From the IMG/VR virus record IMGVR_UViG_2030936005_000025, positions 200,204 through 264,203 of that record: a stretch of 64,000 nt of DNA. The stretch is one strand, 5' to 3'. This document shows positions 2,479 through 7,938 of this stretch, piece by piece. This DNA comes from a virus. Taxonomy: Duplodnaviria > Caudoviricetes. Under the pieces are notes generated by a model. The model had not been told where the DNA came from. It was given only the letters and a program-made list of their open reading frames with translations, and did no database searches. Made by a program: the position numbers and the translations under genes. Each line of letters starts with the position of its first letter. Position 1 is the first letter of the stretch.

Positions 2479-3087
2479 ATGAAACTTAAGTTGATTACTG
2501 TTGATAAACGTACCTACGCAATTAAGACTCGATATATCGAGCTGAATAGTGATGCCAGTGTGCATTACCGCTCCCCTATCACTGGAAAATTCCCAACAGG
2601 GGATGACGATACAATTACTGATGTGCTCAGGTCAGCTCCACCTACTGCCGTTGCTGTTGTGTATTCTTGTAACAGAGAACCAATCTATATTGAAAAGCAT
2701 GACGGTGCGTATGTTATCTCTGAAGCTAAGACCATTGAGATTGTCAATCAGCCAGTGGACTTCGATGATGTTGATTTCTGGGTTAACACCAAAGGCGAGG
2801 AAGAGTGGAAAAAGGTTGGACTAGGATATTACATTGAGTATTCTAGAGTACACCTGAATGACAGTTACCAGGTCGCTCAAAAGGATTTCAATTTAAATGA
2901 AAAAATGCAAGGGATAGTCCACCTGCCAAACGGTCAACTTGGTAAAGCAGTAAGATGGTATCTCAATGGATCGAGGACTTGGCTTAGAGTCACTGAGGGG
3001 ATGAGTGAGGATATTCTTTCTAAACTGACCGTGATCACTATCCTTGATGGAAAAAATCCTAATGACCCAGGGTATAAACTTCCATAA
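2479..3087 (+). CDS. Hypothetical protein
   Basis: 202-aa ORF with GAGAGAG purine-rich leader; no family recognised. Confidence 0.8.
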   Translation: MKLKLITVDKRTYAIKTRYIELNSDASVHYRSPITGKFPTGDDDTITDVLRSAPPTAVAVVYSCNREPIYIEKHDGAYVISEAKTIEIVNQPVDFDDVDFWVNTKGEEEWKKVGLGYYIEYSRVHLNDSYQVAQKDFNLNEKMQGIVHLPNGQLGKAVRWYLNGSRTWLRVTEGMSEDILSKLTVITILDGKNPNDPGYKLP

Positions 3088-3096
3088 GTATATTAT
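3082..3096 (+). promoter_or_regulatory. Phage early-type promoter upstream of the large ncRNA
   Basis: CCA-TAAG-TATATTAT matches the TCA-N4-[T/G]ATAT[T/C]AT motif found upstream of six leftward cassettes in this window. Confidence 0.65.
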
Positions 3097-3100
3097 GTAA

Positions 3101-3955
3101 TTCAATCGAGTGTAACTGATCGCTGTTCTGCGGAATAGTATGGTTTCATCACCCCGTTATATTCGACTGTAAGACCCTCGTTATCCAGGTGTGGGTACAT
3201 AACGAGGGCAGTGTCCGGTGGGTTGCACTACCGGACTAAATCCAAGAGTGAACGGCGGCTTAAGCCCGCTACTGTAAGTAGCTCTTGGTTGGGTGATATT
3301 ATGTACTTTCACTGCATAATGTCCTCTGGCGGTGGTTGGACTTTTGGCGTTCTTCGCCATTGTCTGACAGATCACCGCACCCCTTTGTACCAGTGGCTGA
3401 TATCCAAGTAGAGCTTTAATTATACCTGACGGATAGCGCTCACAGTGTTTCAACCATTGGTACATCCTCTTGAGGATCTTGAACGAAAACCGTAGGGTAA
3501 CCGCCGAGCACATTGCGTTGCATTCAAGGCGGCTTAAGCAGGGGACTAGGTAGTCTTCCTGGGTGATATCAAGATCCTCAAACCTACTACTCTCCGTGAT
3601 ATGGAGTAGACACCCCGTGGTGGGGGCATCGTAACCATCTGATGAGTCCGCGATGAGAAATAAAGAGACGAAACGGGTTCTGTCGTTCGGAGACTCCAAC
3701 TCCTGACAGATCCGTCATGAATCGCTCTGCCTTAACTGTGAGGAGCAGCCTCAATCTACGATTCTAGAGGAACAGCAGCGTTACTGAAAGATCCACGGCA
3801 AATGGATCGAAGCAGATAACAAACAGTCCGCTCCCTTTGCCAGGGGAGAAGTTGTTAAAACCAAGAGGTGTAGACAGCCTTTAGATCACCGTGGTAGTAA
3901 AATGGGGTTGCTCCCAGAGTAGCTATCAGAAAGTGGTCTTTAGAGTGGCTATACA
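3101..3955 (+). ncRNA. Large, highly structured non-coding RNA (about 850 nt), family unknown
   Basis: No credible ORF; more than 15 hand-paired helices including 3175-3184/3199-3208 (10 bp), 3213-3219/3230-3236, 3386-3396/3454-3464 (11 bp) and 3470-3482/3569-3581 (13 bp perfect); own promoter; downstream hairpin. Ends are approximate. Confidence 0.75.
3613..3677 (+). ncRNA. Hammerhead ribozyme fold (type III), GUG triplet variant
   Basis: CTGATGA (3639-3645) and GAAA (3670-3673) cores; stems I, II and III all pair; 5-bp loop I/loop II complementarity CATCG/CGATG. Confidence 0.65.
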
Positions 3956-4005
3956 AAAAAAAATAACAGATCGAGATCCTCTACTCTCCTAACGGAGAGT
4001 AGAGG
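3955..4005 (-). terminator. Hairpin terminator with displaced T9 tract
   Basis: 12-bp stem CCTCTACTCTCC-TAAC-GGAGAGTAGAGG (3978-4005); A9 at 3955-3963, 14 nt away. Confidence 0.7.
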
Positions 4006-4011
4006 TAATCT

Positions 4012-4437
4012 TTATGCTGTCAAATAAAGTTCAGCCCAGATTTTAAATAAACGTTTCATGTCATTTGCGATCAATCCTAATGCCCGTGTATTTTTCAAGT
4101 TACCGGCATACAACCAAAGTTCACACTCAGGTTCACCTACGATCACAATGTCATTGAAATACATGACCAGAGATTTGGATGAGGTAGCAATGAGATCTTT
4201 GCGATTAACTGCAAAGCAGAATTCATTGGATTCAAGAATCACATTGTAGAAATAAGTGAACAGAGCTGCATCAAAACTGTCTGGTTCTAATTCATAAGTC
4301 TCAGCTAACTTAATGCTCTCCTCTTCATTAATAGCTAATTTAGTCAGAGAGTCGTTACCGGTGATAGCAGACAGGTTGCGTTTGAAGATGGTTTCCATGA
4401 TAGCTTTCCTTAATAAGTTAAGAACATTATTGTTCAT
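4012..4437 (-). CDS. Hypothetical protein (early cassette; similar to 7975..8400)
   Basis: 141-aa ORF bracketed by the promoter motif and a terminator. Confidence 0.8.
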   Translation of the reverse strand: MNNNVLNLLRKAIMETIFKRNLSAITGNDSLTKLAINEEESIKLAETYELEPDSFDAALFTYFYNVILESNEFCFAVNRKDLIATSSKSLVMYFNDIVIVGEPECELWLYAGNLKNTRALGLIANDMKRLFKIWAELYLTA

Positions 4438-7538: not shown

Positions 7539-7587
7539 AAAAAAATAAATGATTAAGACCCTCTACTCTCCGTTAGGAGAGTAGAGG
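7537..7587 (-). terminator. Hairpin terminator with displaced T9 tract
   Basis: Stem 7560-7571/7576-7587 is an exact inverted copy of 3978-4005; A9 at 7537-7545. Confidence 0.7.
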
Positions 7588-7593
7588 CGATCT

Positions 7594-7938
7594 TTATTTG
7601 CTCATGCGTGTTGCAATCATGCCGTTTTCAAACAGCGTCCCAACAAACAGCTCACCTTTTTCAAAAAAGTTATAAAGGTTATCTTTGGTGATGGGAAGTT
7701 TGGTATTAACCAAGTTAATAGTTGTGTAGAACCCACAACTGTTTTCAAAGTAGTTAAAGCGGACTTTGATCAACTGATCAAAAGCCATACCTGAGATCCA
7801 AGCAGAACCGTTCAAATAACCCACGGTAAGGATCAGGTCTTTATCGGTAATTTTACGGCTTGCGATATAGTTATCAGTATCCAGCCGTGATTCAGGTTTG
7901 ACAATAAATTCAAGAAACTTTTTCAGTTCAGCATTCAT
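7594..7938 (-). CDS. Hypothetical protein
   Basis: 114-aa ORF in a leftward three-gene cassette. Confidence 0.75.
   Translation of the reverse strand: MNAELKKFLEFIVKPESRLDTDNYIASRKITDKDLILTVGYLNGSAWISGMAFDQLIKVRFNYFENSCGFYTTINLVNTKLPITKDNLYNFFEKGELFVGTLFENGMIATRMSK

Follow-up and report, generated by a model that had tools for sequence, protein, structure and literature searches.

A likely pseudoknot-braced type I hammerhead ribozyme within a large structured RNA of jumbo phages

Analysis of a window of 64,000 nucleotides at the very end of a virus record of 264,203 bp indicates that positions 3613-3719 (+ strand) very probably constitute a genuine type I hammerhead ribozyme that would cut after C3716 and that lies within a structured RNA of ~0.9 kb, for which it would act as a 3'-end maker. 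The element is a canonical pseudoknot-braced type I hammerhead that belongs to a well-known class and had previously gone undetected. Hammerheads are well known in phages, and the ribozyme by itself is no surprise. The same locus had been read in the original prediction as a type III hammerhead with a GUG cleavage triplet, and all of the motifs used for that reading are present where it placed them (in DNA letters, CCCGT at 3614-3618, G at 3619, GTGG at 3620-3623, CCAT at 3635-3638, CTGATGA at 3639-3645, GTC and GAC at 3646-3648 and 3667-3669, GAAA at 3670-3673, ACGGG at 3673-3677, CATCG at 3627-3631 and CGATG at 3651-3655). Comparison of 13 homologues shows that the core, stem II and the CAUCG/CGAUG pairing are conserved to a degree well above chance, but that stems III and I as they were drawn are not. 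A hammerhead core within a large non-coding RNA therefore stands, with its catalytic bases invariant in the 13 homologues. What is corrected is a tempting misreading, as a type III hammerhead attenuated by GUG would be unusual while the real element is canonical.

The RNA that hosts the element and its terminator are located as follows.

3088-4006, + strand: host RNA, an ORF-poor, conserved and highly structured non-coding region with a terminator at its 3' end
3978-4005, + strand: intrinsic terminator, a 12-pair hairpin followed by a U-rich tail, with equivalents in the homologues

The host RNA occupies a stretch of ~920 nt (3088-4011) that lacks a credible gene, is preceded by a 202-aa ORF (2479-3087) and has a DUF7484 gene further downstream; the hammerhead is situated about two thirds of the way along this ~0.9-kb RNA. 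An unannotated gap in the same context, with tRNA genes and a glutaredoxin gene before it and the DUF7484 gene after it, is present in Erwinia phage AH04, Kosakonia phage Kc263, Pantoea phage Survivor, Serratia phages Yubaba and Sureiya, Klebsiella phage N1M2, Edwardsiella phage pEt-SU, Pseudomonas phage OBP and Shewanella phage SXP01, and was found as well in several IMG/VR and metagenome contigs. Removal of duplicates left 13 distinct homologues from ΦKZ-related jumbo phages that cover eight gammaproteobacterial host genera (Erwinia, Pantoea, Kosakonia, Klebsiella, Serratia, Edwardsiella, Pseudomonas and Shewanella). When IMG/VR was scanned with the neighbour gene or an upstream conserved block, zero new homologues emerged, and the metagenome pattern matches L031 and L032, together with most non-jumbo pattern matches, were set aside as chance.

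Folding of nine full-length homologues with RNAalifold predicted 149 pairs, 74 of which show compensatory changes. Thus, the gap encodes a real and elaborate RNA on the + strand. A long-range helix between 3165-3170 and 3823-3828 is also predicted in this RNA, and we keep it as tentative because the changes that support it are only of the G-U type. No large-RNA family of Rfam matches the host RNA (E<=10 for the window and E<=1 for five homologous loci), and the Rfam scans of these sequences yielded nothing beyond a sub-threshold type III match to the hammerhead core. Literature searches on hammerheads or large RNAs in these phages found no paper on either the RNA or its ribozyme. This is a large RNA that is conserved across eight host genera and that is present even in the well-studied Pseudomonas phage OBP.

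Several open reading frames overlap or adjoin the structured region. A minus-strand ORF of 172 aa (3181-3699) belongs to no Pfam family and is unconserved as a protein; we rejected it as a gene because only a 15-residue patch is common to the CDS annotated in N1M2. The CDS N1M2_252 (L035 880-1392, - strand) and the Kc263 CDS QYN80068.1 (L005 3013-3204, + strand) both fall inside the structured RNA, lack conservation at the protein level and are probably mis-annotations. Between the RNA terminator and the DUF7484 gene lies a minus-strand ORF of 141 aa (4012-4437) that has no Pfam family, and the related phage records have no annotated CDS at its place.

The two ends of the host RNA offered additional observations. 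At the 5' end, the motif GTATATTATG (3088-3097) is common to four close relatives; it was considered as a promoter and rejected, since it shows no enrichment in the window. A tRNA gene is found directly 5' of the large RNA in Yubaba and Sureiya (L007 2257-2333), in N1M2 (L035 825-900) and in contig L033 (846-917, - strand), and tRNA processing may set the 5' end of the RNA in these phages. At the 3' end, the sequence of the terminator hairpin is repeated ~3.6 kb downstream in the same genome, at about 7560-7599. Additionally, a hairpin at 3586-3609, just 5' of the hammerhead, has the word CTACTCTCC in common with the 5' arm of the terminator, and the 3' arm of the terminator could in principle pair with this hairpin.

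The hammerhead and the elements that accompany it are composed of the following parts.

3613-3625, + strand: hairpin Hp0, CCCC (3613-3616) paired with GGGG (3622-3625) around the loop GUGGU; covaries
3627-3631, + strand: 5' strand of the pseudoknot, CAUCG, paired with CGAUG (3651-3655) in loop II
3636-3638, + strand: 5' strand of stem I, CAU (positions 2.3-2.1), paired with AUG (3717-3719)
3639-3645, + strand: catalytic core C3 U4 G5 A6 N7 G8 A9 (CUGAUGA), invariant save for N7
3646-3669, + strand: stem II, GUC(C) (3646-3649) paired with (A)GAC (3666-3669), with a 16-nt loop
3670-3672, + strand: core G12 A13 A14, invariant in the 13 sequences
3673-3715, + strand: extended stem III, a 43-nt three-part hairpin (IIIa, IIIb and IIIc)
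3716-3717, + strand: C17 and the predicted scissile bond, with GUC (3714-3716), cut, A3717, placed by hammerhead numbering
3717-3719, + strand: 3' strand of stem I, AUG (positions 1.1-1.3), covarying with 3636-3638

The order of these strands (2.x, core, stem II hairpin, GAA, stem III hairpin, C17, 1.x) is that of a type I hammerhead, in which stem I is open and stems II and III are closed by loops. All positions expected of the catalytic centre, namely C3, U4, G5, A6, G8 and A9, the G10.1-C11.1 pair, G12, A13 and A14, the A15.1-U16.1 pair and C17, are invariant in the 13 homologues. N7 is the sole core position left free in hammerheads, and it is U, C or A among these sequences while the rest of CUGANGA does not change; the conservation of the core bases, which the original prediction had put forward as a check on itself, is thus borne out. 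The triplet at the predicted site is a canonical N-U-H triplet, G3714 U3715 C3716, in which U3715 is paired with A3673 and C17 (C3716) stands unpaired, and the CCGUC that contains it is invariant in all 13 sequences.

Each of the three helices can be followed through the homologues. Stem I is 97.4% paired and all three of its pairs covary (CAU/AUG, UAU/AUA, ACC/GGU and CAG/CUG). Longer variants such as CACC/GGUG and ACAU/AUGU occur, and a fourth pair, 3635/3720, was counted by eye in 6 of 12 homologues and is absent in the window; the stem is therefore 3-4 bp long, with only two contiguous pairs plain in pEt-SU. Within stem II the G10.1-C11.1 pair (G3646-C3669) is G-C in 13 of 13 sequences and the next two pairs are invariant, and the fourth pair covaries (C-G in six, U-A in four and unpaired in three, which include the window). 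Loop II carries CGAUG (3651-3655) and, after it, an A-rich tail (3656-3665) in which A50, A52 and A54 are invariant. Stem IIIa, formed by ACGG (3673-3676) and CCGU (3712-3715) and including A15.1-U16.1 (A3673-U3715), is invariant and 100% paired. Further out, compensatory changes are found at six of six pairs in stem IIIb (3679-3684 with 3705-3710) and at four of four in stem IIIc (3689-3692 with 3700-3703).

In the 13 homologues GAA-ACGG is followed by an invariant CCGUC 35-40 nt on, and the stem III segment folded alone gives the same long hairpin in each of them. Given that all 10 of the distal stem III pairs covary and that they enclose ACGG/CCGU, the downstream partner of GAAACGG is fixed. 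The hairpin carries two further conserved elements, an invariant GU (3677-3678) in the internal loop after ACGG and a UCCA in the apical loop ACUCCAA (3693-3699) that becomes GCCA in SXP01, which suggest a tertiary contact or a protein site; our search for a pairing partner of the apical UCCA or of the GU found none. Nowhere in the gap is conservation higher than in the block CUGANGAGUC...GACGAAACGGGU, and the invariance of GACGAAACGGGU and CCGUC exceeds catalytic need and could reflect another constraint.

Covariation tests favour this fold as a whole. On the model-fitted alignment of 13 sequences, the type I fold with its pseudoknot has 93.1% of 390 cells paired and changes on both sides at 21 of 30 pairs; plain MAFFT alignment of 12 sequences gives 89.5% and 18 of 31 pairs. 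The covariation score for the 13 sequences is 0.555 versus 0.216 in shuffles, with none of 500 shuffles reaching 0.555, and sliding the partners by 1-3 columns lowers the pairing to 31-47%. These figures are strong but are not to be read as formal probabilities, given that the 13-sequence alignment was fitted to the structure and that its sequences share ancestry. No change is seen in stem IIIa or in three of the stem II pairs, which makes them neutral for covariation. In stem I, 3 of 3 pairs covary; in stem III, 10 of 10 distal pairs covary and the four proximal ones are invariant. G-U pairs in several helices are compatible with the + strand only.

The same alignments bear on the type III fold of the original prediction, in which stem III is CCCGU/ACGGG, stem I is GUGG/CCAU, and a GUG triplet leads to a cut, or a failed cut, at 3619/3620. 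Every letter of it is present in the window, and the best sub-threshold Rfam match is to a type III model, although only the core and stem II are aligned in that match. Its stem III is 70% paired with zero compensatory changes, and its stem I is 64-67% paired with two compensatory pairs of one cell each; both results were obtained with MAFFT and with an alignment fitted to that very fold. Even on the fitted alignment, 193 of 500 shuffles pair equally well, and the two pairs that flank the supposed GUG site form in 6 of 12 and 5 of 12 sequences. The homologues show the type I order instead, with stem I open and stem III closed by a loop. Additionally, the 5' side of the drawing is otherwise engaged. 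The CCCC/GGGG pairing at 3613-3625, which had been mentioned as a competing hairpin, is the conserved and covarying structure Hp0, with compensatory changes at four of four pairs (CCCC/GGGG, CUCC/GGAG, CUACU/AGUAG, CUUCC/GGAAG and CCCU/AGGG), and it holds the 5' arm of the drawn stem III, the drawn G17 and most of the 5' arm of the drawn stem I. The ACGG that should have paired with this arm has its partner downstream, enclosed by the 10 covarying pairs.

The identity of the cleavage-site nucleotide follows from these results. Because stems III and I of the type III drawing are unconserved, G3619 is not the cleavage-site nucleotide; the supposed position 17 is G or U in homologues. The invariant GUC (3714-3716) places the predicted site 97 bases downstream of the GUG. 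The idea of an attenuated or catalytically silent ribozyme consequently loses its ground, since a triplet that is canonical and invariant gives no hint of attenuation, and the proposed G3619C 'repair' should be without effect. As judged by comparison of the sequences, a type III ribozyme with a GUG triplet is contradicted, and we regard its existence as scarcely credible.

All of the type III drawing can be formed only within the clade of the window (the window, AH04, L017 and L018), and this raises an alternative in which CCCGU (3614-3618) paired with ACGGG (3673-3677) is an inactive conformer that delays or gates cleavage in the clade, where the pairing would compete with Hp0 and stem IIIa. 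The four members can form all or nearly all of the 12 pairs, with computed energies of -3 to -9 kcal/mol. Outside the clade, however, only 6-9 of 12 pairs form, energies are positive and stem III is without compensatory change, and the C-rich and G-rich arms involved readily pair by chance. In the window itself, computed energies that leave the pseudoknot uncounted are -21.6 kcal/mol for type I versus -9.0 kcal/mol for the type III drawing, which makes the alternative conformer ~12 kcal/mol less stable. We consider such a two-state switch very unlikely, and a single type I fold remains the preferred description of the element.

The pairing of CAUCG with CGAUG is the best-supported of all, with 98.5% of cells paired and compensatory change in three of five pairs. 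Its variants are CGUCG/CGACG, UGUCG/CGACA, CCCG/CGGG and GUUCG/CGAAC, such that two of the positions occur as CG, UA or GC and as AU, GC, CG or UA, respectively. The contact between loop I and loop II that had been proposed originally is thus a real and covarying pairing, but CAUCG is a single strand 5' of stem I and there is no hairpin loop there. Lying just 5' of stem I, CAUCG would form an H-type pseudoknot with loop II and so keep stems I and II alongside each other, and the A-rich remainder of loop II appears placed to cross the pseudoknot helix. A second candidate partner for loop II, AUCGC at 3721-3725 in the 3' flank, was seen by eye only in the window clade and Kc263, and it was rejected because the 5' strand CAUCG covaries universally. 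Tertiary contacts that link the stem I side to loop II are typical of fast natural hammerheads and are not strictly required. According to Perreault et al. 2011 (PMC3088659), ~40% of natural hammerheads of all three types use a pseudoknot of this kind, and cleavage becomes slower by one to two orders of magnitude when it is disrupted. The same study found hammerheads to be frequent in phage and prophage DNA and demonstrated activity for pseudoknot-braced ones, many of which occur in phages.

By hammerhead numbering, the predicted cut falls on the bond that joins C3716 to A3717. There, internal transesterification 3' of the GUC triplet would leave an upstream piece of ~600 nt that keeps the ribozyme and ends in a 2',3'-cyclic phosphate, and would release a downstream piece with a 5'-OH. 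With a stem I of 3-4 bp, the 3' product should come away readily if it is not retained by further contacts. The host RNA would indeed be divided in two as was first proposed, but into pieces of ~615 and ~290 nt, assuming a start near 3100, rather than 520 and 335 nt. What lies beyond the cut in most phages is a second domain.

3717-3960, + strand: 3' domain of the host RNA, ~240 nt, present in 10 of 13 homologues

Hairpins in this domain covary, such as the one in which GCUC...GAGC encloses the conserved loop GCCUUAACYGUGAG. It is absent from Survivor (L006 2998-3093), pEt-SU (L019) and SXP01 (L161 1640-1733), in which a terminator or the next gene follows almost directly after the predicted cleavage site. 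Similarly, in a contig of a relative (run X15) the similarity ends at window position 3723 and 3,128 other letters precede the terminator. As the sequence after the cut varies, the constant unit is the 5' domain plus the hammerhead, and this arrangement suggests a role for the ribozyme as a 3'-end maker. The ribozyme would give the conserved 5' domain a defined and terminator-free 3' end and, where the 3' domain exists, would separate or nick two RNA domains. On the basis of this architecture, we infer with moderate confidence that making the 3' end of the conserved ~600-nt domain is the most likely function of the hammerhead. A more extended proposal, which we offer tentatively and think somewhat less probable than its converse, is that the hammerhead provides built-in maturation for an undescribed class of giant RNA, with pieces of ~600 and mostly ~290 nt that are maybe held in association by the 3165-3170/3823-3828 helix. 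If true, it would provide the first known case of a large ornate RNA that self-processes through a small ribozyme of its own.

Sequencing runs and phage genes were also inspected in relation to processing. Among the runs that contain the stretch, none is recorded as RNA. A 218-nt contig, from a run of uncertain kind that is maybe DNA, crosses the predicted site uncut. Four runs guessed to be RNA are available as contigs only, which do not reveal RNA ends; one contig spans 3670-3889 and one begins at 3731 beside adapter letters, and both were set aside as evidence. Of the enzymes that might rejoin RNA ends, RtcB (PF01139) and Rnl2-type RNA ligase (PF09414) are absent; in the search for T4 Rnl1 (PF09511) the controls were silent.

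An opposing view of the element is that the hammerhead fold is retained because the large RNA needs a three-way junction for its structure, with no or negligible cleavage in vivo. The location midway in a large RNA rich in covarying helices would fit such a junction, as would the very short stem I, the conservation beyond catalytic need of GACGAAACGGGU and CCGUCAU beside the core, and the contig of uncertain kind that crosses the predicted site. Yet a purely structural junction has no need for invariant C17, G5, A6, G8 and G12 while only N7 drifts, nor does it account for a stem I/II brace that accelerates catalysis and is retained through compensatory changes, and several phages have a module boundary just past stem I, as would suit a site of processing. 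We therefore judge a purely structural role to be unlikely, and we favour an active type I ribozyme. Together, the predicted cut site, the end chemistry and inactivating mutations provide an experimental handle on an uncharacterised ~0.9-kb phage RNA.

Existing models do not detect the element. At gathering thresholds Rfam has no match at the locus; Hammerhead_3 (RF00008) reaches 16.3-16.6 bits there, whereas its gathering score is 48.5, and the locus is not matched at all by Hammerhead_1 (RF00163). The sub-threshold Hammerhead_3 alignment covers only CUGAUGAG, stem II and GAAAC, and leaves the stems of the type III drawing unused. The gathering score is a detection threshold and not a defining property of hammerheads, and the low scores are explained by the long stem III, the insertions in loop II and the short stem I. 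A covariance model built for the present element (R1) finds exactly one strong copy per record in five whole phage records, at 99-110 bits, and its scores over the 13 homologues range from 62.7 (SXP01) to 121 bits. R1 also matches compact phage type I hammerheads at 24-33 bits, which places the element within the known type I kind. Such compact type I hammerheads, whose stem II likewise reads GAGUC...GACGAAAC, are common in IMG/VR, where at least 118 viral contigs carry cores of this kind; among the IMG/VR matches listed, L066, L121 and L122 have three hammerhead copies each, spaced 400-900 nt apart. In an unrelated 46-kb phage contig (L026 1846-1912), the core of a compact type I hammerhead reads CCGAUGA (U4 to C), and this hammerhead has a GUC site and good stems I and III.

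Comparison with known systems defines what is shared and what is distinctive. With the type III hammerheads of viroids and plant satellites (RF00008), which give the best sub-threshold Rfam match, the element has in common the core sequence and stem II, whereas its loop-closed stem III and open stem I are the opposite arrangement. The host RNA resembles GOLLD and ROOL (Weinberg et al. 2017, PMC5737381; Kretsch et al. 2025, PMC12286853) in being large (~0.9 kb), richly structured, phage-borne and adjoined to tRNA genes. It differs from both in that neither Rfam family matches it in sequence or structure, even at E<=10, and in that its hosts are Gammaproteobacteria and its carriers are jumbo phages. 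To our knowledge, no self-cleaving ribozyme occurs in GOLLD or ROOL. The closest likeness is to the type I hammerheads of phages and bacteria (Rfam clan CL00010, RF00163; PMC3088659), with which strand order, core, GUC and G10.1-C11.1 are all shared, and in particular to the pseudoknotted members (PMC3088659), which have the same 5-bp Watson-Crick brace from the stem I side to loop II and likewise occur in phage DNA. The present elements constitute a hammerhead subfamily that the curated Rfam models miss. Unlike known type I hammerheads, in which stem III is a short hairpin, they have a 43-nt three-part stem III with a conserved apical loop, a 16-nt loop II with an A-rich tail, a stem I of just 3-4 bp and a pseudoknot partner that lies in a single strand past stem I rather than in a loop. 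Finally, while known type I hammerheads lie between genes, this one is embedded in a structured RNA of ~0.9 kb.
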